A stretch of 64,000 nt of DNA from Candidatus Abyssobacteria bacterium SURF_17 (GTDB lineage Bacteria; Abyssobacteria; SURF-5): NCBI GenBank assembly GCA_003598055.1, contig QZKI01000121.1, positions 7,102 through 71,101 of the forward strand, written 5' to 3'. The notes below the pieces were generated by a model, which had not been told where the DNA came from, searched no databases, and saw nothing but the letters and a program-made list of their open reading frames with translations. The translations under genes and the position numbers were made by a program. This document shows, piece after piece, positions 13,368-49,261 of this stretch (positions are counted from its first letter, which is position 1; every line of letters begins with the position of its first letter).

Positions 13368-13404
13368 CGCAGATGCGACAGTCAGGCATTGTGGAGGAGA
13401 TGTT

Positions 13405-14808: not shown

Positions 14809-14862
14809 ATTCTGGGCGACGGATTGCAGACCGCAAGCCTGCTTGAGAAAGGACATACACCC

Positions 14863-33230: not shown

Positions 33231-33581
33231 TTAACCACCCTGAACGTTCTCGTCGCGGTCAACCGCCAGCCCTTTGTGTACGTCGCGAACATGCTTCTCT
33301 TTCAACTCTGCGGTTCCCGGCGGCGTCTTCGCGAAATAGAATTCAAAGGCGTCTTCGTTCACCGAAACACGAATGTCAGCCTTGTGATGCTCAGCATAGT
33401 CACGCACGCATTTCCAACTCTCAAGCGCGCACGCTTCCTGAGGGGCTCCTGTCTTCTTTGCCTTGTCATACCAGGCGAGAAGCGAGAACTTCCCCGCCAT
33501 ATCGGCCGCAGCCTCACGCGCAGCCTTTTCGGCCTTCGCGTAATCGACGCCTGAGCCCAATTTCAGATTGATGTTCTTCAT
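33231..33581 (-). CDS. Hypothetical protein (116 aa)
   Basis: Strong RBS aaggagg 7 nt upstream of the ATG. Protein-like composition. No recognised motif. Confidence 0.6.
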   Translation of the reverse strand: MKNINLKLGSGVDYAKAEKAAREAAADMAGKFSLLAWYDKAKKTGAPQEACALESWKCVRDYAEHHKADIRVSVNEDAFEFYFAKTPPGTAELKEKHVRDVHKGLAVDRDENVQGG

Positions 33582-33863
33582 GCCTCGTACCTCCTTGTTT
33601 GTCCTCTAAAGAATGTCCCGCGCGCATAGAACCGCATAGTCCTGGCGCTTGTTACAAATATAACGTTCATCGTAGCCGGACGCTAGTGGGCCGCCGGTAG
33701 TTCGGCATGGAACGACTTTCCTTGCGGATCGGTCGCTTATGGGATGCAAAGCTCACAATTTTCCGCAAACACTCACTCGCGATATGTGCTCTTGTCTATC
33801 CGCATGATTCTGTCCATAATTGAAGCGGGCATGTTTCAGAAAAATAAACCGCAGGAGCGAATC

Positions 33864-33977
33864 ATGAAAACTCTCTTGATCGTAGTCGGCTTGATTCTCT
33901 TGCTAGGCATATCCGCTTTCGCAATCATGGCGCTGAAAGCAACGTCGGGGAGACCAAAGGGGCCCACCGGCGACTAA
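33864..33977 (+). CDS. Putative 37-aa single-TM micropeptide
   Basis: RBS aggag 7 nt upstream. MKTLLIVVGLILLLGISAFAIMALK followed by a basic tail. Unsupported beyond sequence features. Confidence 0.3.
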   Translation: MKTLLIVVGLILLLGISAFAIMALKATSGRPKGPTGD

Positions 33978-34439
33978 CATTGAGCACAGGATTGGTGTAT
34001 TGTCGCTGGCATCCTATCACGGAGTCGACATACCATTCGGGCTGATGCATTCCTGATGAAGCCACTCTGCATCATTGCATCTTGAGTCATTCAGGTTGAG
34101 TGAGGATCTGTTATGACCCAGAAAAGTCGTGAGCCCAAAAAAATGCCCGGCCCTCAAAGATCAGGCATATGGGAATCATTGTTGAGGATGTTGAAAGGAC
34201 GGCGCTCTCTCTGGGTTTCGGCATCCTGTTTGCGATGATTCCGACGCTGTACTTGGCCGCTGAGGATGCGAGACGTGTCAACGCCAAAATCCGTCACGCC
34301 CTATTATCGGACTCGAAATCTCAACTGGAGCCGGGATCCGGTGGCAGGTAGGATGCACAGTTGGGGGTAGCATCCGCTCTCAAAAAGTGAAGGTTCCGCT
34401 TTCAACGCTGCGCTTCAGAAAGATTCAACCAGGTTTCCC

Positions 34440-37400
34440 TCAGAAATATAGGTGTCGCTCGCCGTGCTCAATCATGCCGACGCGCTTCTCGGTTTCGGCG
34501 CGGGTCATGGAAGAGGAAATCTGGTTCGAAGCCTTCCGTATCAGCGCCAGGCCTGCCTCCCGGACTTCGGAGCCTGCGTAGTCTTCCAGATACTCCTTGA
34601 AGGTCAATATCGCATTTGGCAGACAGTAATCCTTAATGAGGCCGGGTTTCGCAAGGTTCATGAAGTGGGCTCCCGTTCGTCCCAGCTTGTAGCAGGCAGT
34701 GCAGAAGGAAGGAATATGTCCCCTATTCACAAGCGGAAGAATGGCGTCGTCGAGATTTCGCGCCCCGTCCACACCTCTGCTCGAATCTATTCCCAACTCA
34801 CCATCAACTCGGCTGCTGGGGTCGGTTCGACTGCCGGCGCTCACCTGCGAAACGCCGAGCGTGAACATTTCGGCTTGCATTTCCGGCGGTGCTTGCGTGC
34901 TTGTAACAATTCCCGCATACGGGACAGCCAGCCGCAGCACGGCTATGACCCTCTTGAAATCTGAATCTGTGAGTGATGGAACAGATTGTTCTGTAGATGA
35001 GGAGTCCTTTGCAGGCTTGAGCCGAAACAAACCGAGCGTGCGCGGCCCTATGCCGTATACGTGTTCGAGATGCCGAATGTGTTGGAGAAGCGCAAGAACC
35101 TCGAAACGATAATCATAAAGCCCGAATAGCAGGCTGATTCCGCTATCACTGATACCACCTTCGAACGCGTGGCCGATGGCATTCAGCCTCCGGGTGTATT
35201 CCGCCGAGGAATCTTCCCCGTGGAGTTTCTTGAACGTGGGCACATGATAGGTTTCCTGAAAGAGCTGGTATGCTGCTATCTTTGACGCTTTCAGTTGCCG
35301 GAATTCCTTCACCGCAAACGGAGGAGCATTCAGGCTAACGTGGCGGATTTCTCCCTCTTCCCCGTGAGTGGACCAAATGGTCGCAATCGACTGCAGGAGA
35401 TAATCGAGTCCCCCATGGGGAACGCCATTGCCGGCAACGAGTAGAACGCGCTTATGTCCTCGCCTCTCAATCAGGCGCACTTCCTCAGCAATTTCCCCTT
35501 GCGACAACGCCTTGGCCTGCTTCTTTCTATCGCTCACGCGAAGGAAGCAATCTTTACAGTCTTCCCGGCAAAAGCTCGATACATATAAGGGAGCGAAAAC
35601 CACGAGTCTATTCCCGAAAATTGACTTTTTGACTTCGTGCGCTGCCTGAAACATCTCCTCCGTGACCGCAGGGCTCGTGCATTGGAGCAGAACCGCTGCT
35701 TCTTCCGTGTGCAGCCCTTTAAGCTCGCGAGCCTTCTTGATGACCTCCTTCACGCGGTCATCCCCCACCCTCGCCGTTGAATCAATATAGTTCTGTATCA
35801 CCCCCTCATCAATGAAGGCCTTCGGCGCCCCGCCGATTTCGATTCCGACCGATTTCTGGGCGCCTTCCTGTGGCGCGACCGGAAGATGCACCGTAAAAGT
35901 GCTGCCGTGTTCCTCCTTGCTCTCCACCGTTATTCTGCCGCCGTGCTGGCTGACGATTTCCTTCACAATCGACAATCCCAGGCCTGTTCCGATTTTCTCC
36001 ATGTCCCGCGCACTTTGAGTCCGAAAGAACTCGTTGAAAATCCGCGGAATGTCCGCCTGCGGAATTCCAATCCCTGTATCGCTTACTTCTATCTTTACGG
36101 ATGTGCTGTCATCGCAGGTACAGAGCATCTTGACGCGCCCGCCCGTCGGAGTGTACTTTATCGCGTTGGAAATCAGATTCTCGAACATCTGTTGAATCAT
36201 TTCCTCGTCGCACTTGATGCCGGGCACGGCATCAGGAATGACAGTCTCAAAGCAAATTCCCTTTTTCTCCGCCTCTGTTTGAAATGTCCGCTGCACCCCT
36301 CTCATCAGCGTAGATACGTCGACAACTTTATGCACTACACTCCGCTTGTCTCTTCTCTGTGCATACAACACCATAAGCTCGTTTATCATGGAGAGCATAT
36401 TACGAATGGGGTATTCAATCCGGCGCAGATAGGACAACTGCCGGTCGTTCAAGTCGCCCAGATACTTCCCTTGCACGACATCAAGGATGCTTATCGCTGC
36501 TGCCAAAGGCGCGCGCAGATTGTGGGTGACGCGCATCATGAACCTCGACCGCTCCTTCACCATTTCCTCGATTTCTTCGTAATAGCGCGCGTTCTCGAGC
36601 GCTATGGCCACAAGCCCGGCGGCCAGCCTGAAGAAATCCACGTCATCACTGCCAAACTCCTCGGCACGCTTTGAATACGCTCCCAGAATTCCGGTGACTC
36701 GGTCCTCCACGGTCAGAGGCACAAACAAAACCGACCTTACCTGCGCTGCTTTCAGATCTTCTCCGAACTGGAACAACTCCCGCTGCGTGACGTGCCCCGT
36801 TACAAACGGGTCCCCCTCGATAATCCTCCGGTTCAAAGGGCTCTTGGCAACCTCGATGACCTTGTCCCTTATTAGCTCACTTGGCAAACCGTATGCAGCG
36901 GCATAGCGAAGTACTTTGCCGTCGTCACTGAGCAATTTGACTGACATTCCTTGCACGTTCATCACTGCAGCAAGTTCCGAAGTGGTGATGTTCATAAGGT
37001 GCTCAAGTCGCTGGTTCGAGACGATGGCTTGGGTCATCACGTAGAGACTTCTGAGCTTGTTGTTGAGGGTCGTCAATTCCTCCGACAGTTCCGCAAGGCT
37101 TACAATCCGCTTCCTGAGCATGCTCATGATAGCGGTTGTTGAAAATGCGGTTATGAACACTGTGGTCGTGAAGAAAATTAAGTTGACCATCATGTGGAAT
37201 GGCGACTGAATGAGATTGAGGGTTCTCCCGTGGAAGATGAGTGAGTGATGCGAAATCCAGCCGAGATATTCTCCAAGGGAAACGAGGGCCATGCCGGCAG
37301 CCGCCAGCGCTGCAAAACCGTATGCCGAGCGCGGACGCAGGAGAATGGACGCGAAGATGATGTGGAAGATGAAGAAGAGTGTGAGCGGACTCGAAACGCC

Positions 37401-37781
37401 ACCCGTGAAATGAATGAGCAGGAACATCGCCGCGTAGTCGAGCGTCACCTGGCAATAGGTGAACCGCTGAATATAGTCGGTTTGTTCCACCGGCACGGTC
37501 GCCAAGGAGCGCCCCCACCGCGCGAAGACCATGTTGTAGGCCAAGATGAACGCTGCAATACCGAAAAGTGCGCCCGCCGAAAATTCCACCCCGACGAGCC
37601 GACCCACGACTGTTCCCGTTGCAATGCAAGGTGGAACCCACCATCTGAGCCGAACAAACCAGACGGTTCGCTCCTTCAGCTCGCCGAGGATGATCCGCTT
37701 GCGCTTATTGACCTCCTCAGGCAGGTTCAGCACTCCCACACTGTTCGGCATCTGGCTCACTTTCTGCTCCTGTATCCTCAA
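34440..37781 (-). CDS. hydG: Sensor histidine kinase (multi-TM + GAF + HisKA + HATPase_c) translationally fused to [FeFe]-hydrogenase maturase HydG (radical SAM tyrosine lyase)
   Basis: Single 1113-codon ORF. H-box VTHNLRAPL and G-boxes VSDTGIGIP / GTGLGLSIV. Then a linker APQEGAQKSVGIEIGGAP with no in-frame start codon. HydG part has KAFIDEG..., radical-SAM CREDCKDC (Cx3Cx2C) and C-terminal CTACYKLGRTG-x-C (Cx2Cx22C). Confidence 0.8.
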   Translation of the reverse strand: MRIQEQKVSQMPNSVGVLNLPEEVNKRKRIILGELKERTVWFVRLRWWVPPCIATGTVVGRLVGVEFSAGALFGIAAFILAYNMVFARWGRSLATVPVEQTDYIQRFTYCQVTLDYAAMFLLIHFTGGVSSPLTLFFIFHIIFASILLRPRSAYGFAALAAAGMALVSLGEYLGWISHHSLIFHGRTLNLIQSPFHMMVNLIFFTTTVFITAFSTTAIMSMLRKRIVSLAELSEELTTLNNKLRSLYVMTQAIVSNQRLEHLMNITTSELAAVMNVQGMSVKLLSDDGKVLRYAAAYGLPSELIRDKVIEVAKSPLNRRIIEGDPFVTGHVTQRELFQFGEDLKAAQVRSVLFVPLTVEDRVTGILGAYSKRAEEFGSDDVDFFRLAAGLVAIALENARYYEEIEEMVKERSRFMMRVTHNLRAPLAAAISILDVVQGKYLGDLNDRQLSYLRRIEYPIRNMLSMINELMVLYAQRRDKRSVVHKVVDVSTLMRGVQRTFQTEAEKKGICFETVIPDAVPGIKCDEEMIQQMFENLISNAIKYTPTGGRVKMLCTCDDSTSVKIEVSDTGIGIPQADIPRIFNEFFRTQSARDMEKIGTGLGLSIVKEIVSQHGGRITVESKEEHGSTFTVHLPVAPQEGAQKSVGIEIGGAPKAFIDEGVIQNYIDSTARVGDDRVKEVIKKARELKGLHTEEAAVLLQCTSPAVTEEMFQAAHEVKKSIFGNRLVVFAPLYVSSFCREDCKDCFLRVSDRKKQAKALSQGEIAEEVRLIERRGHKRVLLVAGNGVPHGGLDYLLQSIATIWSTHGEEGEIRHVSLNAPPFAVKEFRQLKASKIAAYQLFQETYHVPTFKKLHGEDSSAEYTRRLNAIGHAFEGGISDSGISLLFGLYDYRFEVLALLQHIRHLEHVYGIGPRTLGLFRLKPAKDSSSTEQSVPSLTDSDFKRVIAVLRLAVPYAGIVTSTQAPPEMQAEMFTLGVSQVSAGSRTDPSSRVDGELGIDSSRGVDGARNLDDAILPLVNRGHIPSFCTACYKLGRTGAHFMNLAKPGLIKDYCLPNAILTFKEYLEDYAGSEVREAGLALIRKASNQISSSMTRAETEKRVGMIEHGERHLYF

Positions 37782-37787
37782 CTGCGG

Positions 37788-38192
37788 TCAGCTCTTCCGC
37801 AAAATCCCCTGTATCTTTTCCAGGAGTTTCTTCGTATCCACCGGCTTTTCAAACAACCAGTCGGCGGGCCACTCCTCACCCAAGATTCGCTGAAAGTTTC
37901 CCGGTCCCTCCATGCGCACCTTGTCCAGAAAACAGGTAATCATGATGATGGGCGTATTGGCAAATTCGGGATTGTTCCGAAGCATGCATGCCACGTCAAA
38001 ACCTTCGGTATCAGTTGCCATCATCAGGTCCATGAGTATGAGGTCCGGCCGCCATTCCTTCAGCATTTCCCGAGCCTCGCTCCCATTCTTGGCGGTTTGA
38101 ACCGCGTACCCGTTCTTTTCAAGGACATCGCGGAGGATTCGCCTCATGTCCGAATCGTCGTCCACCACAAAGATTTCGCCCTTGCGCGTCAT
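37788..38192 (-). CDS. Single-domain response regulator (CheY-like receiver)
   Basis: Receiver motifs VVDDDSD, LILMDLMM (phospho-Asp), IIMIT and EKP. Sits 6 nt upstream of the kinase-HydG gene and 33 nt downstream of hydA. Confidence 0.85.
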   Translation of the reverse strand: MTRKGEIFVVDDDSDMRRILRDVLEKNGYAVQTAKNGSEAREMLKEWRPDLILMDLMMATDTEGFDVACMLRNNPEFANTPIIMITCFLDKVRMEGPGNFQRILGEEWPADWLFEKPVDTKKLLEKIQGILRKS

Positions 38193-38225: not shown

Positions 38226-39995
38226 CTACAGGCCGCGTTCCACATACTGCGTGTGAAGCAGCTTATGCGAGAGATGGCCTAAGGGCTTTCCCAGAAATTG
38301 TTCATAAATCTGGACTATTTCAGGGTTCTCGTGAGACTTCCGCAATTTCTTGCCTTCATCCTCCTTGTAGATGGCTCGTATCCTTGCCATGCGCACCTCA
38401 TTGTCCGTCATCCGCGGCTGGCCTCCGCCTCCGATGCATCCGCCGGGGCACGTCATGATTTCGACGAAATGGTAGCTGCCCTCGCCGGATTTGATACGCT
38501 CAATCACCTTTCTGGCATTCCCCAGGCCGTGAGCGACCGCCACCTTGAGCGTAGCTCCGTCGAGGAACGACCATTCGGGAACTGCACGCGGGATCTCGAT
38601 TGATGCTTCCTTCACACCTTCCAGCCCGCTAATAGGAGCGACGTGGAGGTTCTCGAACGGCAGCGGCGTCCCAGTCACGATCTCATATGCCGTCCTGAGT
38701 GCGGCCTCCATCACGCCTCCCGTGTTGGCGAATATGTCCGCGGCTCCCGACGACATGCCTATCGGCGAGTCCATCTTGTCGTCCGGCAGTGAGACGAAGT
38801 CGATGCCGGATTGCTTAATCATTCGGCCGAGTTCTCGGGTGGTCAAGACAACATCGACATCCCTGACACCGCTGCTGTGCATCTCCGGCCTCTGGGCCTC
38901 AAACTTCTTGGCCGTGCACGGCATGACTGACACCACAAAAATGTCCTTCGGCTCTTTGTTCAACATTTTCGCATAGTAAGTCTTCGCGACCGCGCCAAAC
39001 ATCTGTTGCGGAGACTTGCACGTGGAGATGTTCGGCAGCAGCTCAGGATAGAAGTGTTCTACAAACTTGATCCACCCGGGAGAACAACTCGTAAACTGGG
39101 GAAGAGCAACTTCCTTCTTCTCCACAAGCGCCGCTTTAAGCCGCATCAGAAGCTCGGTCCCTTCCTCTATGATGGTCAGGTCAGCGGTAAAGTTGGTGTC
39201 AAACACGCCGTCAAAGCCCAGCCGCCGCAGCGCCGAGACCATCTTTCCCGTCACAAGCGTTCCGGGCGGATATCCGAAGCATTCTCCCAGCGCAGCCCTG
39301 ATTGCCGGGGCTGTCTGCACGATTACGTGCTTGCTCGGATCATCAAGCGCAGCCCATGCTTCGCTAATCTGGTCCTTCTCGCTTATGGCGCCCACCGGAC
39401 ATACTGCGGCGCATTGGCCGCATTGGACGCAGACCACTTCGGCAAGCTCATTCGTGAATGCAGGGCCGATGACGGATTCAAACCCGCGGTATTGGGGAAA
39501 CAGGGCTCCCACGCCTTGGACTTGGCCGCAGACGGTTACGCAACGACGGCACTTGATGCATTTGGCCGAATCGCGCATAAGCGCCGGCGTGCTCGCATCA
39601 ACTACCCGAGCACTTTTTTCGCCGGGATAGGTGATGTCGCTTATGCCGAGCTCACGGGCAAGAGCCTGCAATTCACAGTCATCGTTCCGGTTGCAGGTTT
39701 GGCAGTCGCCGTTATGCTCTGATAGGAGAAGCTCTACCACGGTGCGCCTTGCTTCGCGCACCCGGGCCGTATTCGTGAACACCTTCATGCCGTCCAAGAC
39801 CGGCGTCACACAGGAAGCCACGAGAACGCGTGAGCCCTGCACTTCTACGAGACACACCCGACATGCGCCTATTGCTTGAATATCTTTCAGGTAGCACAAG
39901 GTCGGCACTCTTACTCCAATCTGGCGGACGGCCTCCAGAATGGTTGTTCCCTCGGGCACCTGCACACTCATACCATCAATGGTTAGTTGAGGCAT
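38226..39995 (-). CDS. hydA: [FeFe]-hydrogenase catalytic subunit HydA (group A, NuoG-like N-terminus)
   Basis: RBS ggaagggg then ATG at 39995. N-terminal 2Fe-2S, a His-ligated 4Fe-4S (HNGDCQTCNRNDDC) and two ferredoxin 4Fe-4S clusters. H-cluster motifs L2 MPCTAKKFE and L3 EIMTCPGGCIGGGGQP. L1 reads TSCSPGW. Confidence 0.9.
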   Translation of the reverse strand: MPQLTIDGMSVQVPEGTTILEAVRQIGVRVPTLCYLKDIQAIGACRVCLVEVQGSRVLVASCVTPVLDGMKVFTNTARVREARRTVVELLLSEHNGDCQTCNRNDDCELQALARELGISDITYPGEKSARVVDASTPALMRDSAKCIKCRRCVTVCGQVQGVGALFPQYRGFESVIGPAFTNELAEVVCVQCGQCAAVCPVGAISEKDQISEAWAALDDPSKHVIVQTAPAIRAALGECFGYPPGTLVTGKMVSALRRLGFDGVFDTNFTADLTIIEEGTELLMRLKAALVEKKEVALPQFTSCSPGWIKFVEHFYPELLPNISTCKSPQQMFGAVAKTYYAKMLNKEPKDIFVVSVMPCTAKKFEAQRPEMHSSGVRDVDVVLTTRELGRMIKQSGIDFVSLPDDKMDSPIGMSSGAADIFANTGGVMEAALRTAYEIVTGTPLPFENLHVAPISGLEGVKEASIEIPRAVPEWSFLDGATLKVAVAHGLGNARKVIERIKSGEGSYHFVEIMTCPGGCIGGGGQPRMTDNEVRMARIRAIYKEDEGKKLRKSHENPEIVQIYEQFLGKPLGHLSHKLLHTQYVERGL

Positions 39996-40014
39996 TCCAT
40001 TCCACCCCTTCCGC

Positions 40015-43000
40015 TCAGCGCTCGTCTCGATAGTCGCAGCGCAGACACCGTTTCGCTTCCCTCTGGGCCACATTCTGCCGCCATGGCGTTTCCACCTCGA
40101 GGAAATTACTCCTCCTTTTTGCGACCGGAATCATCTGGGCCTTTGCACGCGGATATTGCACAGGGTCGGCCTCCGGGTCAAAGAAGGTGTCGATTGTTTG
40201 TTCCTTCCTCCAGAACGCCTCTCCCTCGCCCTCGAGAAACTCGTGAATACCCACAGCGGCCTTCTCGCCGCCTCCTATCGCGCTTGTTACCGTAGCGGGG
40301 CCGGTTGCCGCATCGCCTCCCGCGAAAACCCATTCAACGGATGTCTGTCCGGTCACCGGGTTCATGTGAAGCACATTTCCGGCAAATTTGAGGCTGATTC
40401 CGTCGCATATCTCCTTGCCATCCAGCGCTTGCCCGATGGCCGCGATTACCTGGTCGGCATTCACCACAAAGTCGCTGTCCTCACACCGCTCCGGACGCCG
40501 CCTCCCCGAGCGGTCATAGTCTCCTAGCTTCATGCGACAGCATTTCACGCCGACGACATGGCCGTTACTGGAGAGAATCTCGACAGGTGCAACAAGGGTT
40601 CTGATACGAAGCCCCTCTCGTTCTGCTTCTTCAATCTCCTCTTCATATGCAGGCATCTCAGCCCGCGTTCGGCGATACAGGATCGTCACCGCCCCGGCGC
40701 CCAGCCGGAGGGCTGTTCGTGCAGCATCAACTGCCGCGTTTCCGCCGCCGATGACGACCACTTCCTTGCCGACCGATACCGAGCCATTTAGGTTGTGGTC
40801 ATGCAAGAAGCGCATTGCGTCGCTCACGCCCTCGACCTTCTCGCCGGGAATGCCTAGGTCCAGACCTCGCGGAGTGCCTACGCCCACAAAGACCGCCTTG
40901 TAGCCATCCGCTTTCAAGCTCTTCAAGGTGAAATCCCTTCCAAGCTTCATTCCGGTTTCTATATCTACGCCGAGGTGCTCGATCATTCTAACTTCGCGCG
41001 TTATTACGTCTCGAGGCAGACGATAAGCCGGGATTCCCCAGCGAAGCATGCCTCCCGGCTGGCTCTCGGCCTCGAAGACCTTCGGACGATACCCCAGCCG
41101 TGCGAGGAAATATGCGCAGGAAAGCCCGGCAGGCCCGGCTCCGATTATTGCGACCTTGTGTCGTGCGTTTCGTTCGCTTTCCCGTATCTCCGGAAGCTGT
41201 ACCGTCACTTCCTGTTCAACCATGAACCGTTTGAGGCCGCGGATTGAAACCGACTCGTCCACGGTCGAGCGTCGGCATTTGCTCTCGCACGGATGGAAGC
41301 ATACTCGCGCGCATACGGACGCAAACGGGTTTCGATTTCGGTGAAGCTTCAACGCCTCGGCGTACCGGCCTTCGGAAATCAAGGCCACATATCCGGGTAC
41401 ATCCACGCCTGCGGGGCACGCATTCTGACATGGCGCCCGCACGAGCGACTCACAGACGCCCGCGGGACAATGTTTTTCCCTGATATGTGCGTTATACTCG
41501 TCGCGGAAATGCCTGATTGTGGACAACACCGGGTTCGGTCCGGTCTGCCCCAACCCGCAGAGCGCGGTATCTTTTATCTTGTTGCCCAGGTCGATAAGCT
41601 TTTCGACGTCGCCCTCTTGCCCGTTGCCCTCGCAAATCCGGTTCACAATCTCCAGCATCCGCTTCGTGCCCACCCGACACGGAGGGCACTTGCCACATGA
41701 TTCGTCCTGAATGAAGTCAAGGAAATAGCGAGCCATGTCCACCATGCACGTATCCTCATCCATGACGATGAGGCCGCCCGACCCCATGATCGCTCCCAAA
41801 TCGGTGAGCGATTCATAATCGACGGGCACATTGAGATGTTCCTTTGGAATGCACCCACCGGAAGGTCCGCCCATCTGCGCGGCCTTGAACTTTTTGCCGC
41901 CAGGAATTCCTCCGCCAACCTCATATATAATCCTGCCCAGCGACGAGCCAATGGGGACTTCAACCAGGCCGGTGTTGTTGACCGTTCCCGCAAGCGCAAA
42001 CACCTTGGTCCCTTTGCTCTTCTCGGTGCCGAACGAAGCGTACCATTCCGCTCCTTTCATGATGATCGCGGGTATGTTGGCATAGGTCTCCACATTGTTG
42101 AGCAGGCTCGGCTTTCCCCATAATCCTTTTTGGGCAGGGAATGGGGGCCGCGGCCTCGGCTCGCCTCGATTCCCTTCGATGGAGGTCATGAGCGCGGTTT
42201 CCTCGCCACATACGAACGCTCCCGACCCCATCCGAATCTCCAAATCGAAATCAAAGCCGGTCCCCATGATGTTCTTCCCGATGAGCCCGTATTGCCTGGC
42301 TTGATCGAGCGCCTTGCCCAGCCTCTCGACGGCAAGCGGATATTCGGCTCTCACGTACACATAGCCTTGGCTCGATCCGATTGCATACGCCGCTATTGCC
42401 ATGGCCTCGATGATGCTGTGGGGGTCGCCTTCGAGCACGCTGCGGTCCATAAACGCCCCCGGGTCACCCTCGTCACCGTTGCAGATTACGTATTTAACAT
42501 CTCCTTTGGACTGGCGGGTCACGCGCCATTTCCTGCCGGTCGGAAATCCTGCTCCCCCTCTGCCGCGCAGACCGGACTTCTCCACGACGTCGATGACCTG
42601 TTCAGGCGTCATCCCGGTTAGCACCTTGGCGAGTGCCTGATAGCCGTCTCGCGCGATGTATTCGTCAATCCGCAGCGGGTCTATGATTCCGCAATTGCGA
42701 AGAACGATCTTCTCCTGCTCGCGGAAGAAGCTGATGTCCTGAAGCCTGGCGACTCCTTGAGCTGTTGCAGGAGCCCTATGCACCAGCCGCTCAACTACGC
42801 GACCCTTCAGGAAATGCTCTTCAACGATGACCGCCGCGTCTTCCGGTTTCAGATTTTGGTAAAACACGCCGTCCGGGTAAACCACTGCCACCGGACCGAC
42901 CGCGCATGGTCCCAGGCATCCCGTTTCAATGATTCTTACTTCGCCCGTGAGACCATGCTTGCGTAAGGGATCCTGCATCGCCGCACCGACCTCGAGCGAG

Positions 43001-43059
43001 CCCGAGGCAACGCATCCAGCGCCAGCGCACAGAAGGAAGTGAGTCCTGGCGTTCTCCAT
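40015..43059 (-). CDS. hydB: Hydrogenase NAD(P)-linked flavoprotein: HydB (NuoF-like, FMN/NADH, 4Fe-4S) fused to a C-terminal GltD/NfnB-like FAD/NADPH oxidoreductase domain
   Basis: RBS aaggagg then ATG at 43059. NuoF motifs GRGGAGFPTGRKW, CNGDEGDPGAFMDR and ESCGKCPPCRVG. Then two 4Fe-4S Cys clusters, FAD motif VAIIGAGPAGLSCAYFL and NADPH motif VVVIGGGNAAVDAART. 1014 aa. Confidence 0.85.
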   Translation of the reverse strand: MENARTHFLLCAGAGCVASGSLEVGAAMQDPLRKHGLTGEVRIIETGCLGPCAVGPVAVVYPDGVFYQNLKPEDAAVIVEEHFLKGRVVERLVHRAPATAQGVARLQDISFFREQEKIVLRNCGIIDPLRIDEYIARDGYQALAKVLTGMTPEQVIDVVEKSGLRGRGGAGFPTGRKWRVTRQSKGDVKYVICNGDEGDPGAFMDRSVLEGDPHSIIEAMAIAAYAIGSSQGYVYVRAEYPLAVERLGKALDQARQYGLIGKNIMGTGFDFDLEIRMGSGAFVCGEETALMTSIEGNRGEPRPRPPFPAQKGLWGKPSLLNNVETYANIPAIIMKGAEWYASFGTEKSKGTKVFALAGTVNNTGLVEVPIGSSLGRIIYEVGGGIPGGKKFKAAQMGGPSGGCIPKEHLNVPVDYESLTDLGAIMGSGGLIVMDEDTCMVDMARYFLDFIQDESCGKCPPCRVGTKRMLEIVNRICEGNGQEGDVEKLIDLGNKIKDTALCGLGQTGPNPVLSTIRHFRDEYNAHIREKHCPAGVCESLVRAPCQNACPAGVDVPGYVALISEGRYAEALKLHRNRNPFASVCARVCFHPCESKCRRSTVDESVSIRGLKRFMVEQEVTVQLPEIRESERNARHKVAIIGAGPAGLSCAYFLARLGYRPKVFEAESQPGGMLRWGIPAYRLPRDVITREVRMIEHLGVDIETGMKLGRDFTLKSLKADGYKAVFVGVGTPRGLDLGIPGEKVEGVSDAMRFLHDHNLNGSVSVGKEVVVIGGGNAAVDAARTALRLGAGAVTILYRRTRAEMPAYEEEIEEAEREGLRIRTLVAPVEILSSNGHVVGVKCCRMKLGDYDRSGRRRPERCEDSDFVVNADQVIAAIGQALDGKEICDGISLKFAGNVLHMNPVTGQTSVEWVFAGGDAATGPATVTSAIGGGEKAAVGIHEFLEGEGEAFWRKEQTIDTFFDPEADPVQYPRAKAQMIPVAKRRSNFLEVETPWRQNVAQREAKRCLRCDYRDER

Positions 43060-43064
43060 CGGTC

Positions 43065-43454
43065 TCAAGCCTCCTTAGATGATTGACTGCTTACCATGTA
43101 CTCAACGAGTGGCTGATTCTCCAGCATGTGCCTGGTCACAATCTCATGCACCTTCGACCGGTCAAGCCTCGCATAACAGAATTCCGTGCCTGATGCGTCG
43201 GTCAAAGTGAACATGGGCTCCTGGTCGCAAAGCCCCATGCATCCTGATAATCGGACAGTCACGCTTTCAACCCCTGCCAGGCGCAATTCCTCAATCACTT
43301 GCGTCAGGATGTCGCGCGCTCCGGCGGCGATTCCGCACGTTCCCATGTGCACCACGATGCGCATGTCTTTTTCCCCTGTGCGCAGCTCAATGTCGGACTT
43401 GGCTTGGTCACGGAGCGCGTTAAGGTCTTTGACGCTCTTAATTTTCTTCTCCAT
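43065..43454 (-). CDS. Thioredoxin-like [2Fe-2S] ferredoxin (HndB-like hydrogenase subunit)
   Basis: 129 aa with a four-Cys pattern (HMGTCGIAAGA...SGCMGLCDQEP) typical of the 2Fe-2S thioredoxin-like ferredoxin of HndABCD-type hydrogenases. Confidence 0.7.
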   Translation of the reverse strand: MEKKIKSVKDLNALRDQAKSDIELRTGEKDMRIVVHMGTCGIAAGARDILTQVIEELRLAGVESVTVRLSGCMGLCDQEPMFTLTDASGTEFCYARLDRSKVHEIVTRHMLENQPLVEYMVSSQSSKEA

Positions 43455-43456
43455 TT

Positions 43457-43987
43457 CTATGCCCCCTTCTCAGCGACGGCGCCCTGGTTCCTGTACTCAT
43501 CAAGGAGCTCATGGACTTTGAGCGGTTTCACGCGCTGATGCACTTCGTTATCGATGGTAATTGTCGGCGCCAGTCCACACGCCCCGAAACAGCGGGCGAC
43601 CTCCAAGGAAAACATCTTATCGGGCGTCGTCTCGCCCACATCGATGCCCAGGTCTCGTTTTATCGAGTCGAGCACCCGCTTCCCGCCTCGAACGTAGCAC
43701 GCTGTCCCCAAACACGTGCGGATGAGGTGCTTTCCCCTCGGGACGGTGGAGAAAAAGGAATAAAATCCGACAACTCCGGCAACCTCGCTATACGATTTGT
43801 TCAATCCCCGGCTGATGCGCTTGAGGGCCGATTCCGGCAGGTAGCCAAAGATGCCTTGCGCAATCTGAAGGACGGGAATGAGTGCGCCCGGCTTTTCCCG
43901 ATATTCCTGAATCACTTCATCGAGTCTGGCCAGAAGCTCCTGTTCCGACACTTCCTCACAGGCACATCCCAGTTTTTCTGGTGCCAT
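43457..43987 (-). CDS. hydC: NuoE-like [2Fe-2S] subunit (HydC/HndA)
   Basis: CLGTACYVRGG ... CFGACGLAP motifs of the NuoE 24-kDa subunit family. Confidence 0.85.
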   Translation of the reverse strand: MAPEKLGCACEEVSEQELLARLDEVIQEYREKPGALIPVLQIAQGIFGYLPESALKRISRGLNKSYSEVAGVVGFYSFFSTVPRGKHLIRTCLGTACYVRGGKRVLDSIKRDLGIDVGETTPDKMFSLEVARCFGACGLAPTITIDNEVHQRVKPLKVHELLDEYRNQGAVAEKGA

Positions 43988-44019: not shown

Positions 44020-44565
44020 CTACACTGACACTGCAAGCGTTACCATAGCGTTTTTGATCTCTTCCGAAATCAGTCTGGCAACCGCCAGGCCACGGAACTC
44101 ATTGAAGTTCAGCTTGCGTGCCACTTCCGACACACTCACGGCACTTTCACGCCCATCCACCTTCAACTTGCATCGAATGTCTATATCCGGATTCGTGCAT
44201 GCCACCGAAGCAAGCGTTGCGGCCAAGTCTCCCAAAGGACTCCTGTCAATATGGCTCAGCCGCATGGTCACCGTGACTACCAACCCCCCAAGCGGGGATT
44301 TCCCCAGCGTCAAGCTTCCGTTTGCTCGCTCGGCAGCCGCGCGGAAGAGGCTCAAGCCCAATCCCACCCGCTTACCCGATTTGGTGGTATAAAAGGGGTT
44401 CACAGCAACGTTCGGGGATACTTGAAGTCCTCGCCCGTTATCCTCAACGCTGATTTTCAGGAGGTCTTCCGCGTGGTCTTCTTCGACCGTTACCGAGACA
44501 ACTGAGACCCCTGCCCGGATGGAGTTTTCGATAAGGTCAAGAATATGCAGTGACAGCTCACGCAC
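44020..44565 (-). CDS. GHKL/HATPase_c-type ATP-binding regulatory protein (anti-sigma-factor / Ser-kinase-like); start approximate
   Basis: LSLHILDLIENSIRAG ... VEDNGRGL ... GLGLSL motifs. The tracked start overlaps the PHP gene, so a later GTG start is preferred. Confidence 0.65.
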   Translation of the reverse strand: MRELSLHILDLIENSIRAGVSVVSVTVEEDHAEDLLKISVEDNGRGLQVSPNVAVNPFYTTKSGKRVGLGLSLFRAAAERANGSLTLGKSPLGGLVVTVTMRLSHIDRSPLGDLAATLASVACTNPDIDIRCKLKVDGRESAVSVSEVARKLNFNEFRGLAVARLISEEIKNAMVTLAVSV

Positions 44566-45292
44566 AGCAGCACCTTCTTCCACCAATTCCTTTTATCGCC
44601 TGGACAAGCTCATCGAATGTGGGTTCAGCCACTTCGAGTATCGTGGCGCACCTGCCTATCTCGAAGAGAAAATGACTGTCGGAAGAACTGACTACCGACA
44701 GCCCGTGAAAATGCTCACTGCCGAAGGGAGGAACAGCATTGGGTTTCAAGAAAATCTCGACGGCATCAAATCCCACGTCAGGGGGAAACAGGCCAAGCTG
44801 GCTCATAACGCTGAAGGACGGCCTGTTCACATGTGCAGCAATTGCAAGACCGTCATGTCTCTTTATGAGATTCACGGTTTCCGAAAGAGTGAGGGCGGAC
44901 GATGCAGCAAGCATCTTGGATTCAGTTCCCACAACCCGTCCTTTCGCGTCCATCAGGAGTTGCTGGCCGAACCTCTTCGCTCGCTCGCTCAGAGGAGGGA
45001 GATTTGCCCGAACCGTCTCGGCCGCGGAACAGGCTTTCGCAGCATCGGGAAACAGACCAACCACATGAATATCCTCGACCGTCGTTACTTCCATTCCCGC
45101 AACCGCAGCGATAGCTGTTCCCGCCGCCTCCTGCATGGATGCAGTGTTTCCTGCGGCGTTATGGTCGCAAATCGCAATCATGTGAAGCCCCTTCCGAACA
45201 GCCTCCTCCACAATCGCAGGAGGGCTCATCTCCTCCATCGCGCACGGAGACAGTGCGGAATGAATATGCAAGTCTGCCTTGAACCGTTTCAC
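44558..45292 (-). CDS. PHP-domain (polymerase/histidinol-phosphatase-like) metal-dependent phosphoesterase
   Basis: Begins with DLHIHSALSPC ... ICDHN, the PHP His/Asp metal motifs. Confidence 0.8.
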   Translation of the reverse strand: MKRFKADLHIHSALSPCAMEEMSPPAIVEEAVRKGLHMIAICDHNAAGNTASMQEAAGTAIAAVAGMEVTTVEDIHVVGLFPDAAKACSAAETVRANLPPLSERAKRFGQQLLMDAKGRVVGTESKMLAASSALTLSETVNLIKRHDGLAIAAHVNRPSFSVMSQLGLFPPDVGFDAVEIFLKPNAVPPFGSEHFHGLSVVSSSDSHFLFEIGRCATILEVAEPTFDELVQAIKGIGGRRCCCA

Positions 45293-45642
45293 GCATGCTT
45301 CCCTCTCAGCCCCAAGGCGTAGAGCTTGCCCACGGTATTGAACGTTGACTCCTCGGTCGCATAGAGCACGAGGCCCTCTTCAATCGCTTTTTGCCTGACC
45401 GATTCTTCAGGCACCATGCCTCCGGCAAAAATCACCGCTTTGAGCTCAGCATGAACACACACCGCAATGACGTTGAGATGCACCTGAATGGTGACCAGCA
45501 GCCCTCCTTGTGGGGCATTGGCCAGCACGTCGCTCAGCAGGTCGCACGAATGACCGCTCCAGACTTCCGCCTGTTGGTCGGCTTCCTTCTCCGGCGTGAG
45601 ATTTCTCAGACTTAGTTGTTGCGCTATGTCCGCGAGTTTCAT
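45289..45642 (-). CDS. DRTGG-domain protein
   Basis: About 117 aa of DRTGG-like sequence (GLLVTIQVHLNVIAVCV...IFAGGM). Translationally coupled on both sides. Confidence 0.65.
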   Translation of the reverse strand: MKLADIAQQLSLRNLTPEKEADQQAEVWSGHSCDLLSDVLANAPQGGLLVTIQVHLNVIAVCVHAELKAVIFAGGMVPEESVRQKAIEEGLVLYATEESTFNTVGKLYALGLRGKHA

Positions 45643-47216
45643 GGCGCTCTCTCCGCATCGTCAATGACATACGGACATGCCTTCTTCCGTGCTCTGCCCA
45701 TCACCACATCCTCGGCAAGCGCGTCGCAGGTCGGCGCGCCGCACAGACCGCAATCTTTGCCCGGAAGGCTTTTGGCGAGTTCCTCCAACTCAGACAGCTT
45801 TTCAATGGCCTGTGAGACATCGGCGCTGAGCCCCATGCCCGTTCGTGGCTTAAGCGGGGCCGTCCGGCGAATTGCTTTTGCTGCAATCGCATGTTCAACT
45901 TGGGTCCGGCTCCACCGATACCTGGCGACGAAGGGCTGCTCCGTGAGAAGCGGCGAGCCATAACACCCGCACTCGCATGCGTACAATTCCAAAATCCGCA
46001 CGTCGCGCAGCCGGCCGTTCTCCAGCTTCTCGAGCACGTCAATAACGTGCCTCATGCCACATGCTTCGAGGATGCCGTTGAGTGCGCTTCCGTTTGCCGG
46101 CGGAATGATGCGAACTTGCTGCAGCCGTTCCTCAACTCCTTCCTCCATGACAACCCGTTGAACCACGTGGCGAAATGTGGCGGGCATCATAACTTCGACA
46201 TTCCTCGAGAAAGAACCGGCGGTGAGTGCGGTAAGTTGACAAGGGCAACAAGCAACGAAGACAACCTTCTGTCCGTTGAACTGGTTCCTGGCTGCTTCAA
46301 AAGGGGATAAGAAGGGAGCTATGACTTCAATGAGAGACTGAAACCGCAATCGTATGAGATTCACAATGGCCGGACACACGGGCGAAATCACGGGCAATTG
46401 CCTTGCTTCTTCGGCAGCATACCTGATGACGGCGCTTCGCAACGCGTTCTCCCACGCTTCGGTGAGGTAGACCTCCCTGAAAGCGAGTTTCCGTATTCCT
46501 GCAAGCACGCGGCTGGGATATATTGCCGCACTGAATTGCGCCAGAAAATGGGGTGGGACTAACAACACCTTCTCTTCAAAAGGCTGAGCCTCACTCATGG
46601 CGCTCGCTGTCGTGAGCGCACCACTTTTGCATACTCCAATACATGCCGCGCAGTCGATGCAGAGTTCTCTCAGTATCTGTGGCTTGCCGTCGTAGACTCT
46701 CAGCGCCTTCGGTGCGCAAACCCTCACACAGTAGAGACATTGGCGACAATTCGTGGAAATCGCTCGAATCGAGTTGTGCCCTGTCTCCGAAGACTCCTGG
46801 CTCCTGAAGCAAACCGTATACAGCACCCTGGTTCCCTGGCCTACGGTGGAGTCTATCTCGAACACATCGGAGTTCTTCTTCATATTCGGCAGGCCCAGAC
46901 CGGCTCCATAGCCCAACTGCCTCGCCGCAGGCGAAGCCGTGGAGAAGCCTTCCTGCATTGCCTGCTCAATGTCGGGAATGCCGGGACCCTCGTCCCTCAC
47001 TTCAACCTCTATCTCCGTGGAATCAATGATCGCGCGCATGCTGCCCCTGTATGCGTGTATCACGACATTCATCTCGGCCTCGAAGGCGGCGATGATGGCA
47101 CGGCGCATATCGGCTGGGTCCATATTGATTTTTTTCAGAAGCCGCTTCAGCGCACTCGTTGCCGCGCCTGCCTTTTTGAAATCACCGCCCTCGATCATGC
47201 TAAGCGTGACTCTCAT
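45639..47216 (-). CDS. HydS-like putative sensory [FeFe]-hydrogenase paralogue with N-terminal GHKL Ser-kinase domain, 2x[4Fe-4S] ferredoxin domain, degenerate H-cluster domain and C-terminal Cys cluster
   Basis: N-terminal anti-sigma Ser-kinase pattern (NVVIHAYRG...EVRDEGPGIP...GYGAGLGL). Ferredoxin motifs CRQCLYCVRVCAP and CIDCAACIGVC. H-cluster-like L1 ISPVCPAIV, L2 VACCPCQ and L3 ELYACECGCYGSPL. C-terminal CGLCGAPTC-x16-C. Confidence 0.75.
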   Translation of the reverse strand: MRVTLSMIEGGDFKKAGAATSALKRLLKKINMDPADMRRAIIAAFEAEMNVVIHAYRGSMRAIIDSTEIEVEVRDEGPGIPDIEQAMQEGFSTASPAARQLGYGAGLGLPNMKKNSDVFEIDSTVGQGTRVLYTVCFRSQESSETGHNSIRAISTNCRQCLYCVRVCAPKALRVYDGKPQILRELCIDCAACIGVCKSGALTTASAMSEAQPFEEKVLLVPPHFLAQFSAAIYPSRVLAGIRKLAFREVYLTEAWENALRSAVIRYAAEEARQLPVISPVCPAIVNLIRLRFQSLIEVIAPFLSPFEAARNQFNGQKVVFVACCPCQLTALTAGSFSRNVEVMMPATFRHVVQRVVMEEGVEERLQQVRIIPPANGSALNGILEACGMRHVIDVLEKLENGRLRDVRILELYACECGCYGSPLLTEQPFVARYRWSRTQVEHAIAAKAIRRTAPLKPRTGMGLSADVSQAIEKLSELEELAKSLPGKDCGLCGAPTCDALAEDVVMGRARKKACPYVIDDAERAP

Positions 47217-47568
47217 GCGTGATCCGCGCTCCCCGGCCCAATAACCGGCTCAAACGGTCCGCCGTTTCCGTCAGTCCGACAGATGAGACCATGAGAATCG
47301 TTCCGTTTTCCGTGGATGCGTTCAGCAGCTCTTGCTCCGGCACGTAGCCATTGAGAAGGCAAATCGCCGGCACTTCCAGAAGTCCTGCTACGCGAAAGAT
47401 GTGAGGATTGAGTATGTTGCTTACGACCAGCGTCCTCTCGCAGCACCGTTCGGCGAGAAGTTCGCTAATCTTGTCGTCAGCGTAGAATCGCTCAATCTCT
47501 GCGCTGAGTGGGCCTGAATAGGTCAGAATTTTGGCCCCGATTTTTTTGGCTAGTTCGTAGAGTCTCAC
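47200..47568 (-). CDS. DRTGG-like domain protein; GTG start inferred downstream of the sigma54 promoter
   Basis: The tracked ORF starts at ATG 47652, but a sigma54 promoter overlaps that position. An in-frame GTG at 47568 gives a 122-aa DRTGG-sized protein. Confidence 0.5.
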   Translation of the reverse strand: MRLYELAKKIGAKILTYSGPLSAEIERFYADDKISELLAERCCERTLVVSNILNPHIFRVAGLLEVPAICLLNGYVPEQELLNASTENGTILMVSSVGLTETADRLSRLLGRGARITHESHA

Positions 47569-47662
47569 ACTCGCGCTCGCACGGTTGGAGTCATTGTCGA
47601 GGGCCCCCGTCCGCTGTCCGCAAATGCAATCCCCATGCCGACGACGTTTCATGAGGTGGGCT

Positions 47663-47806: not shown

Positions 47807-49261
47807 TCATGGGCGCGAATCACCCATGGGAGATATATGCTCGTTTCCTCGGGCCTTGAACTGCTCTTTTATCAAACCATATTTCTTCATCCTTTCGTAA
47901 AGGGCTCTTCTCGATATTCCCAAAGCTCCGCTCGTGGCGCCTACCTCTCCGTGGTGCTCCCGGAGCGCGCTTTCAATCACCTGTCTTTCGGTCAGTTCCA
48001 TTGCATCGTGCAGCCTCCCCGGTGTGGCGGGCAACGATAGAAGGCGCTGGTCAACGAAGCTTTCATCCATCTCGAATGAACCGGTCACACCGCGGGAAGA
48101 GGTAATCACCATTCTCTCAATGGCGTTTTTCAACTCTCGAATGTTACCCGGCCACGAGTGCGTCATCATCTTGCCGAATGTCTCCTCAGGGAATCTGGGC
48201 ACCGGGATTCCGCTTCGGTTTGCGGCAGCTTTTGAGAAGTGGGACGCCAGGAGGGGAATATCCTCACGCCGCTCGCGAAGCGGCGGGATAACAATAGTGA
48301 GCACATTGATCCGGTGATAGAAATCTTCCCTGATTCGTCCTTGCTGCACGAGTTCTCTGAGGTTGACGTTCGTAGTTGCAACAACACGAACGTCCACGCT
48401 CCGCAATTCATCCTGACCGAGCGGCTGCACGAGTCCGTCTTCGATAACCCGAAGCAAATGCACTTGCGCTCGTTCGGAAAGGCTCTCGATTTCATCGAGC
48501 AGAAGCGTTCCGCCAGATGCCATGACAATCTTGCCGTCCCTCTTAAAGGTAGCTCCCGTAAATGCGCCGCGCGCATGGCCGAACAATTCGCTCTCAAGCA
48601 GGGTCTCTGACAAGGCTCCTGCATTTACCGGTACGAATGGGCCGTTCACACGCGCGCTCAGCGAGTGGATAGCGCGGGCCGCAAGTTCCTTTCCCACACC
48701 CGTTTCGCCCAATATCAACACCGGTGCGTCGGACCTCGCATATACCCTGATTTGTTCGTACACATCTTGCATGACCCTGCTTCTACCCACCATTCCGCAG
48801 AACTGGTCTTCGTCAAGGCACATCATGTCAAGCCGTCTGCGGAGCTCCTCGCTCTCATGGCGGAACTTTGTCAGTTCCACGGCGCGCCTGACACTCGCAA
48901 GGAGCACATCTTCCTCAAACGGTTTTTCGAGGAAATCATACGCGCCCGATTTCAAACATCGAACCGCCATCGGGATATCCCCGTGGCCGGTGAGCATGAT
49001 CACAGGCACCTGATAATTTCGTTTCTTTACCTCTGCCAAAAATTGCTCCCCGTCCATCCATGGCATCTTCACGTCCGCAATTACGCAGTGAGCGTCACAA
49101 AGCGGCACCCACTCAAGCGCCGCTATCGCCGATGGGAACTCCTCGACTCCGAACCCCCGCAAGCGAAGCATCTGCCCAATAGACTCCCGCGCTGCATCGT
49201 CATCATCTATGATGGCAATGTTTACTCGTACGGATGGCGTGACATCAGTCATTTTCCTCAA
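47807..49261 (-). CDS. Sigma54-dependent Fis-family response regulator (REC + AAA+ + HTH; NtrC family)
   Basis: Receiver domain, Walker A GETGVGKE, the GAFTGA motif (RGAFTGA) and a C-terminal Fis-type HTH. Confidence 0.9.
   Translation of the reverse strand: MRKMTDVTPSVRVNIAIIDDDDAARESIGQMLRLRGFGVEEFPSAIAALEWVPLCDAHCVIADVKMPWMDGEQFLAEVKKRNYQVPVIMLTGHGDIPMAVRCLKSGAYDFLEKPFEEDVLLASVRRAVELTKFRHESEELRRRLDMMCLDEDQFCGMVGRSRVMQDVYEQIRVYARSDAPVLILGETGVGKELAARAIHSLSARVNGPFVPVNAGALSETLLESELFGHARGAFTGATFKRDGKIVMASGGTLLLDEIESLSERAQVHLLRVIEDGLVQPLGQDELRSVDVRVVATTNVNLRELVQQGRIREDFYHRINVLTIVIPPLRERREDIPLLASHFSKAAANRSGIPVPRFPEETFGKMMTHSWPGNIRELKNAIERMVITSSRGVTGSFEMDESFVDQRLLSLPATPGRLHDAMELTERQVIESALREHHGEVGATSGALGISRRALYERMKKYGLIKEQFKARGNEHISPMGDSRP

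Follow-up and report, generated by a model that had tools for sequence, protein, structure and literature searches.

The window analysed here, a 64,000-nucleotide stretch of the metagenome-assembled genome (MAG) of Ca. Abyssubacteria bacterium SURF_17 (assembly GCA_003598055.1, contig QZKI01000121.1, positions 7,102 to 71,101 of the forward strand), carries on its minus strand a gene in which a membrane sensor histidine kinase runs, without a stop, into a module derived from the hydrogenase maturase HydG. The fusion is genuine and in frame, and it joins two genes that are neighbours in a conserved receiver–kinase–HydG module. The explanation that we favour, with moderate confidence in it as a whole, is that the gene fusion joined an active kinase to a HydG-derived half that would now be a non-catalytic, Fe–S-binding accessory domain. 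HydG is the radical S-adenosylmethionine (SAM) tyrosine lyase that synthesizes the Fe(CO)2(CN) synthon during [FeFe]-hydrogenase maturation; it uses up SAM, tyrosine, cysteine and iron, and gives off CO and cyanide.

A single stop-free frame of 1113 codons can be counted from its first TTG, as the sequence-only reading of this stretch had claimed. The probable start is the ATG at 37751, giving a coding sequence of 1103 aa at 34440-37751; the identical protein in NCBI, RJP65908.1, begins at the same ATG and is annotated simply as “HydG”. Pfam matches along the frame are 6TM_PilS, GAF, HisKA, HATPase_c, Radical_SAM and BATS, and every motif quoted from inspection of the letters (H-box, G-boxes, FID, CREDCKDC and Cx2Cx22C) was located, so that the proposed multi-transmembrane sensor, GAF-like domain and HisKA/HATPase_c transmitter are borne out. 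The HisKA match (23.6 bits) falls just under the gathering cut-off of 26.9, HATPase_c reaches 109 bits, and NCBIfam kinase models span aa 400-640 with E ~1e-50. The phospho-acceptor histidine of the H-box is present and is invariant across 16 aligned fused proteins, the ATP-binding N, G1 and G2 boxes are all in place, and the model of the HATPase_c domain superposes on the HK853 and WalK folds. The kinase half is intact, and most likely autophosphorylates and passes its phosphate to the adjacent 134-aa receiver. In the AlphaFold2 (AF2) model of the fused protein, the mean confidence (pLDDT, predicted local distance difference test) is 80.6, falling below 50 at residues 629-642 of a linker of about 20 aa that is predicted to be disordered. 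The relative placement of the two halves is undefined in this model, since its predicted template modelling (TM) score is only 0.48.

The C-terminal half is of the HydG type. It scores 409.2 bits against the NCBIfam HydG equivalog TIGR03955 (cut-off 312) over aa 655-1112, whereas the ThiH model gives 184.7 bits against a cut-off of 380. An identity as ThiH or BioB, which had been named as an outcome that would overturn the assignment, is ruled out by these scores together with the presence of the C-terminal cluster domain. The half aligns end to end with the HydG of T. italicus (TiHydG; 4WCX, E = 6e-115), and its AF2 model matches the same structure with a target-normalised TM-score of 0.92.

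A search of 5.8 billion proteins returned at least 31 further clusters of the same architecture (1101-1111 aa, 54-63% identity, 98-100% query coverage), originating from JGI, ENA, NCBI and Logan assemblies, as well as several truncated fused fragments; many independent assemblies therefore carry proteins that combine HisKA, HATPase_c and HydG. The gene order HydC, HydB::GltD, HydA, 134-aa receiver and kinase–HydG is common to the loci L001, L002, L005, L009, L020 and L033. In the canonical fused loci (L001, L002, L009, L020 and L033) an ammonia-lyase, HydF and HydE come next, and the fused protein, with a HydG half of 527-549 bits, fills the hydG slot as the sole hydG of a hydG-(lyase)-hydF-hydE maturation cluster. 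Indeed, hydE and hydF lie downstream of all canonical fused and split loci that were examined. The unfused condition is also widespread. Over 500 kinases without a HydG part, about 633 aa long, share 56-67% identity with the N-terminal half, and such a kinase is immediately followed by a separate HydG of 468-470 aa in Abyssubacteria SURF_5 (L003), in a “Poribacteria” MAG (L004) and in many Thermodesulfobacteriota-type MAGs. Relatives of the kinase could be evaluated at 61 loci: HydG lies directly downstream in 23 (17 split and 6 fused), and 36 loci without HydG are receiver–kinase pairs located elsewhere in the genome. At L010 (11884-12426) a shortened HydG-like open reading frame (ORF) of 266 aa and a piece of HydE come after the kinase; this may be one more maturation cluster in decay.

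These loci also indicate how the fusion arises. In split loci (L003, L004, L006 and others) the start of HydG overlaps the kinase stop or lies right against it, the genes are in different frames, and the distance from the “LP” of the kinase to the “FIDE” of HydG is 55, 56, 56, 61 or 64 nt; in fused genes it is 60 or 63 nt, the window having 63. An indel of 1-2 nt within this junction of about 60 nt would therefore suffice to join the two genes or to separate them. In a neighbour-joining tree of the kinase half, fused proteins are intermixed with unfused ones in at least five places, and within fused clades (L001/L020 and L002/L009) the linker is kept at the protein level, from which we take the fused frame to be translated and maintained. 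Small indels in the overlapping junction have merged the frames repeatedly, within a receiver–kinase–HydG module that, in many uncultured anaerobes, accompanies one type of [FeFe]-hydrogenase operon.

What sets the fused protein of the window apart from most of its relatives is the state of its HydG half. At columns conserved in at least 90% of the family, it deviates at 63 of 212 positions (about 30%), against 11 of 220 (5%) in its own kinase half. The latter count is within the range of the family (median 7, maximum 20), for which the corresponding figures in the HydG half are 4 and 14. Only the closest fused relative, P0002, shows the same imbalance, with 64 of 212 deviations in the HydG half and 13 of 220 in the kinase half; their TIGR03955 scores are 386 bits for P0002 and 409 for the window, against 527-549 for other relatives. 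The two proteins are 76% identical in the kinase half and 49% in the HydG half, while other fusions average 72% and 78%, respectively. Since synonymous divergence (dS) is saturated in every comparison and a dN/dS ratio is not computable, nonsynonymous divergence (dN) alone was used: between the window and L005 it is 0.15 in the kinase half and 0.41 in the HydG half, and between L001 and L002 it is 0.27 and 0.19. Relative to its own kinase, the HydG half of the window evolves about four times faster than canonical modules do. It is still under purifying selection: its frame stays open for 466 codons, and dN lies far below the saturated dS.

The altered positions include residues of the active site. 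Substitutions in the HydG half comprise H904R, R953Q, R959Q, E775N, Y734D, N730E and K849S, and the motifs PGGY and QF..D have disappeared, as has the lysine of GPK. E775N removes the glutamate of the AGE (GGE-like) motif, a residue conserved across HydG and ThiH; the glutamate of GGE-like motifs contacts SAM in radical-SAM enzymes generally. The histidine of GPHT, replaced in H904R, is kept in the other 15 aligned fused proteins and in both solved HydGs, and is a valine in ThiH. It corresponds to His265 of TiHydG, a ligand of the dangler iron (PMC8855341); a numbering offset of 14 residues applies here because F81, F192 and E133 of HydG (PMC9046217) are F95, F206 and E147 in the 4WCX SEQRES. 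The glutamines at 953 and 959 stand at the equivalents of R300 and R306 of TcThiH (7PD1, whose SEQRES numbering equals that of the paper plus 10). R300 touches the amino and carboxyl groups of the substrate, is strictly conserved and matches R323 of NosL, whereas T299, S318 and S321 hold the phenolate and R306 stabilises it; the counterparts of these last four are reported to be strictly conserved in HydG (PMC9046217). In the window, the equivalents of T299, S318 and S321 are kept. In P0002, all five tyrosine-contact residues (T, R, R, S, S) are replaced, by A, W, K, G and N; the catalytic sites that both proteins have altered are filled by different residues in each. Neither lineage has lost any of the six cluster cysteines, and the β5–α5 region and the C-terminal cluster domain of the HydG half stay well conserved. 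The sequence-only reading had called this half a complete HydG. It is full-length, but both tyrosine-binding arginines, the dangler histidine, the AGE glutamate and the CxYC tyrosine are gone, and an ability to make CO/CN ligands, as a complete HydG would, is not supported by the alignments.

The same MAG appears to be provided with a canonical HydG. SURF_17 also encodes an unfused kinase, P0041 (RJP66495.1), which is 64% identical to the kinase half of the window and clusters with other Abyssubacteria kinases in the kinase-half tree, and a HydG of 470 aa with 548 bits, P0280 (RJP66496.1). We take these two genes to be adjacent because their accessions are consecutive and both are on 12,045-bp contigs. 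Subject to correct binning, the fused copy thus belongs to a second, paralogous operon, with the canonical split pair on another contig of the same MAG. No hydE, hydF, lyase gene or second hydG was found in the 64-kb window, nor any remnant of hydE, hydF or the lyase downstream of the fusion. The operon of the window groups with those of P0002 (JGI, fused) and P0035 (ENA, unfused). The P0035 locus (L166, ENA k141_1410389) is a sister operon whose HydA is 85% identical to that of the window; its receiver and unfused kinase are followed by a gap of 373 bp and an unrelated ORF of 484 aa, with no HydG. This sister lineage has lost HydG altogether.

Our preferred explanation runs as follows. A receiver, a 6TM–GAF histidine kinase and a HydG module follow an [FeFe]-hydrogenase operon of the HydC–HydB–HydA type, with the kinase stop and hydG start overlapping or abutting in split versions, and an indel of 1-2 nt merged the two frames at the junction. 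Subject to binning, the fused copy belongs to a second, paralogous hydrogenase operon without hydE and hydF, the canonical split pair lying elsewhere in SURF_17. The kinase most likely autophosphorylates and signals to the 134-aa receiver. Since the HydG fold and both cysteine triads are kept, the HydG half probably still binds two [4Fe-4S] clusters; it is most likely no longer a tyrosine lyase or an Fe(CO)2CN-synthon synthase, because the residues for productive binding of SAM and tyrosine and for the dangler iron, with roles assigned from ThiH and HydG, are gone. Because the module is still under purifying selection, we speculate that it has been retained as a C-terminal Fe–S accessory domain, which might modulate the kinase in response to redox, O2 or Fe–S status, or might dock the kinase to maturation or hydrogenase partners.

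Several points weigh against this explanation. The degraded clade is represented by just two sequences, the window and P0002, and the HydG module still scores above the curated HydG cut-off. Some departure from the usual motifs can be tolerated by radical-SAM enzymes; the sensor or docking role is speculative, and kinase input domains do not usually sit at the C-terminus. The argument from a second HydG in the same genome depends on the binning of a MAG that is 91% complete with 4% contamination, and the presence of hydF and hydE beside P0041 and P0280 is assumed by analogy with L003 and L006. Finally, in a taxonomy check of the window contig, the best named matches of GcvPB, a glycine-cleavage P-protein subunit, were Lindowbacteria and Deltaproteobacteria at 76-83%.

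The same erosion could be that of a decaying relic, i.e., a hydG made redundant by operon duplication, fused by an accidental indel, heading for loss and merely harmless to the kinase. The acceleration of about fourfold relative to the kinase half, the differing replacements in the window and P0002, the sister operon without any HydG and the truncated HydG ORF after the kinase of L010 are all in line with such a relic. However, dN is just 0.41 at saturated dS, the 466 codons are open in two lineages that share 49% identity there, both lineages keep all six cluster cysteines, and the β5–α5 region and the cluster domain remain well conserved. Neutral decay over such divergence would have made stops and frameshifts, for which reason we count this possibility for less and regard it as rather unlikely.

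It is also conceivable that the protein is bifunctional, with a membrane-anchored active HydG that makes the Fe(CO)2(CN) synthon either under the control of the kinase or with the kinase reporting on this synthesis; the sequence-only reading had proposed that a signal governs the synthesis of the CO/CN ligands, or that a membrane-localised maturase reports on maturation by phosphotransfer to the adjacent receiver. The passing of the HydG equivalog cut-off, the intact fold and the two cysteine triads speak for an active enzyme. So do the fused HydG halves of other genomes, which are canonical and, being the only hydG of their maturation clusters, show that the architecture is evidently compatible with maturase function there. 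In the window, on the other hand, the five residues listed above are lost, about 30% of conserved HydG columns are altered against 5% in the kinase half, the MAG has a canonical HydG on another contig, hydE and hydF are not found in the 64 kb, and the sister lineage dropped HydG entirely. We therefore consider a bifunctional protein quite unlikely here, and signal-controlled ligand synthesis or a maturation-reporting maturase is likewise unlikely for this protein, whereas a signal-coupled, membrane-tethered maturase is a live option for the canonical fused proteins of other genomes, with their intact HydG halves and hydF and hydE next to them.

A free HydG-like protein made alongside the fusion, from an internal start, would be a third possibility. 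The sequence-only reading held that no start codon exists in the linker; this is correct for the linker itself, but in-frame GTG codons lie just past FIDEG, at aa 661, 672 and 677, one of them preceded by GAGGGG, and a weak sigma70-like match is found at 35812-35784(-). Promoter-like matches are nevertheless at chance level (4 found against 2.9 expected), the Shine-Dalgarno-like sequence touches the GTG with no spacer, an internal product would miss the conserved N-terminal FIDE segment, and the linker is conserved as protein in fused clades, which makes two products very improbable. A false fusion created by a frameshift or chimeric assembly is hardly credible: the junction is the kind of place where an error of 1-2 nt fuses frames and the sequence derives from a MAG, but P0002, in an independent JGI assembly, is fused alike with a linker of nearly equal length, six further independent loci and dozens of protein clusters are fused, synteny is shared, and no discontinuity in GC or skew was found at the kinase/HydG junction.

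Returning to the preferred explanation of an active kinase with a non-catalytic HydG-derived domain, it can be taken a step further, as a possible but tentative joint reading in which this maturase has turned sensor and the kinase and HydG interact physically in other genomes. The module, holding two Fe–S clusters without cleaving tyrosine, would act as an input domain of the kinase and couple it to redox, O2 or Fe–S status, or to occupancy by ligands such as SAM, cysteine–Fe, CO or CN-. If so, a hydrogenase operon would be regulated through the fossil of its own maturation enzyme. The recurrence of the fusions argues that kinase and HydG act together, and if this is right the repeated fusions would be Rosetta-stone evidence for a physical interaction between the two proteins where their genes overlap, and for two-component control or reporting of H-cluster maturation in many anaerobes.

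As claimed, the gene closes an [FeFe]-hydrogenase operon at its 3′ end and comes after a receiver gene (Table 1). The receiver is not an orphan, as had been stated, but a conserved partner: in the related hydrogenase loci that were examined, it occupies the place directly upstream of the kinase. In every HydA of this operon family (the window and 17 loci among L001-L033) the L1 motif is TSCSPGW instead of TSCCP, with L2 and L3 intact, and the position of the proton-relay cysteine is naturally a serine in this family; the same variant was mentioned for Melainabacteria ACD20 hydrogenases (PMC3787301). All related loci carry the HydB::GltD fusion (1020-1045 aa), which suggests that the HydABC-type complex exists here in an NAD(P)H-linked form. 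Control by sigma54, also proposed before, is plausible in view of the NtrC-type activator gene and one loose -24/-12 match, although with a stricter consensus no match turned up in the cluster. This candidate element is just downstream of the activator gene and overlies the opening codons of the 150-aa DRTGG-like ORF at 47200-47652, the real start of which is probably further downstream.

Table 1. Coordinates of the fused gene, its domains, motifs and altered residues, and of neighbouring genes in the window
Feature	Position	Strand	Evidence or remark
Whole fused ORF	34440..37781	(-)	1113 codons from TTG; CDS (coding sequence) 34440-37751 identical to RJP65908.1
N-terminal membrane sensor, about six predicted helices, PilS-like 6TM	37107..37664	(-)	Pfam PF25323 aa 99-217; hydrophobic segments; AF2 helices 39-163, 184-245
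GAF domain	36591..37007	(-)	Pfam GAF_3/GAF_2/GAF, aa 258-397
HisKA/DHp domain, H-box inside	36369..36551	(-)	Pfam, NCBIfam, motif; His invariant in 16 fused proteins
H-box THNLRAPL	36504-36527	(-)	Motif search
HATPase_c catalytic domain, N/G1/G2 boxes intact	35874..36209	(-)	Pfam 109 bits; motifs; fold match to HK853, WalK
N-box ENLISNAIKYT	36150-36182	(-)	Motif search
G1 box DTGIGIP	36060-36080	(-)	Motif search
G2 box GTGLGLSIV	35964-35990	(-)	Motif search
Linker APQEGAQKSVGIEIGGAP	35823..35876	(-)	Kinase C-terminal tail and HydG N-terminal residues; predicted disordered
HydG-derived module, full-length (βα)8 barrel and C-terminal cluster domain, eroded active site	34443..35819	(-)	TIGR03955; 4WCX fold; conserved columns
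FIDEG	35802-35816	(-)	Motif search
Radical-SAM motif CREDCKDC (Cx3Cx2C)	35547-35570	(-)	Three Cys kept; CxNxC Asn to Glu, CxYC Tyr to Asp
Asn in place of AGE (GGE-like) Glu, E775N	35427-35429	(-)	Alignment; Glu conserved in HydG and ThiH
Arg in place of dangler-iron His (TiHydG His265, GPHT to GPRT), H904R	35040-35042	(-)	Alignments; site precedes strand β6 (AF2)
TSTQAPPEMQ replacing STRExxxxR; TcThiH R300 and R306 equivalents both Gln (R953Q, R959Q)	34875-34904	(-)	HMMER alignment to 7PD1
Auxiliary-cluster motif Cx2Cx22C, CTACYKLGRTGAHFMNLAKPGLIKDYC, intact	34623-34703	(-)	Alignment and motif search
DUF5619 gene	33231-33581	(-)	Comes after 858-bp stretch
134-aa single-domain receiver	37788..38192	(-)	Pfam Response_reg; DD pocket, Asp in LILMDLMM, conserved Thr and Lys
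HydA [FeFe]-hydrogenase catalytic subunit	38226..40073	(-)	L2, L3 intact; L1 = TSCSPGW
HydB fused to GltD-like module	40015-43068	(-)	1017 aa; NuoF-like subunit and GltD/NfnB-like Pyr_redox_2
Small 2Fe-2S protein	43065-43454	(-)	
HydC/NuoE-like	43457-43987	(-)	
Regulatory genes: HATPase_c protein, PHP, DRTGG, HydS-like protein, 150-aa DRTGG-like ORF	44020..47652	(-)	
HydS-like protein: HATPase_c_2, Fer4, partial H-cluster domain, FeS	45639-47216	(-)	DRTGG, PHP, HATPase_c neighbours
Candidate sigma54 -24/-12-like element cGGCAtGGGGATTGCA / cGGCAtGGGGATTGC	47626-47639	(-)	Looser pattern match only
NtrC-type sigma54 activator	47807-49261	(-)	
PAS histidine kinase	49245-50753	(-)	

Downstream of the fusion, the 858 bp at 33582-34439 hold no minus-strand ORF of 60 aa or more and two plus-strand ORFs of 60 and 77 aa; there is no Rfam match or hyd-gene remnant in this stretch, and no RNA family was found in 32.8-38.4 kb. 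The window also contains a gene of the bacterial eRF1-like (baeRF) family. The genes of the glycine-cleavage P-protein subunits GcvPA and GcvPB are on the same contig, at 13327-16425 and 21926-23080. The glycine cleavage system has been implicated in the synthesis of the dithiomethylamine of the H-cluster (PMC11736057); the co-location with the hydrogenase operon is probably coincidental.

A receiver–kinase–HydG module with overlapping genes, fused several times independently, suggests that two-component signalling and hydrogenase maturation are directly linked in uncultured anaerobes of wide occurrence (Thermodesulfobacteriota/Syntrophaceae-type MAGs, Abyssubacteria and related groups). The canonical fusions are a natural membrane-tethered HydG with which this link could be probed. 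The copy in the window may be a natural “catalytically dead” HydG with its cluster sites, and could reveal other roles of the scaffold or residues that are dispensable for folding and cluster binding. On the practical side, the label “HydG” or “2-iminoacetate synthase” that this protein now carries would overcount functional maturases in metabolic reconstructions.

The sequence-only reading knew of no description of a kinase–HydG fusion, and our full-text literature search, which covered few subscription-journal papers so that absence is not proof, found no paper on such a fusion or on the receiver–kinase–HydG module. Nothing on it is contained in the Abyssubacteria genome paper, the study of hyd-operon neighbourhoods, the survey of archaeal hydrogenases or the Pelobacter genome paper. 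Measured against HydG itself (TIGR03955; structures 4WCX and 4RTB), the C-terminal half shares homology from end to end, the fold, both cysteine motifs and a score above the equivalog cut-off, but it sits behind a histidine kinase, scores 120-140 bits below its relatives, is without the five active-site residues named above and accompanying hydE and hydF, and is redundant with the canonical HydG of its MAG. Measured against transmembrane HisKA sensor kinases with a cytoplasmic GAF domain and PilS-like 6TM region, the N-terminal half has the same domains, all catalytic boxes, a receiver immediately upstream and hundreds of unfused orthologues of about 633 aa. It differs from them in bearing a module of 460 aa derived from an Fe–S enzyme past the ATPase domain, and in that genes of this type are embedded between hydA and the maturation genes.

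Parts of hydrogenase systems are joined to signalling domains elsewhere, too. In the sensory [FeFe]-hydrogenases (HydS, groups C and D) and HydS–kinase fusions, however, the repurposed part is the H-domain and not a maturase, so that the analogy is functional only and implies no homology to the HydG module; the gene directly after the kinase–HydG gene of L002, at 13318-15321, encodes an H-cluster domain joined to a HisKA/HATPase_c transmitter. Hyd maturases are also found within multidomain proteins. The algal HydEF fusion is known from the literature, and our representative library contains HypC–HydE–HydG (881-906 aa), HydF–HydG (861 aa) and HydE–HydG (803 aa) proteins (P0122, P0123, P0126 and P0128). 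These join enzymes of the same pathway, whereas the fusion in the window joins HydG to a signal-transduction protein. There is also a DtxR/MntR-type repressor fused to HydG (P0330; P0337, at L167 4882-6768 and L168 161-2047), of 628-638 aa and 537-541 bits, in two Logan assemblies and with hydF and hydE next to it. No paper on it turned up, and no literature search aimed at it was made. This is a second, independent regulator–HydG architecture, but its partner is a metal-dependent DNA-binding repressor instead of a kinase, and its HydG half is canonical. Lastly, trigger enzymes and pseudoenzyme sensor domains keep an enzyme fold for sensing or regulation after their catalytic residues are lost; the window module resembles them in keeping its fold without those residues, and its regulation of the kinase would be a speculative extension of this likeness. 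Set beside all of these, the protein of the window is a two-component kinase with a maturase-derived C-terminal module.

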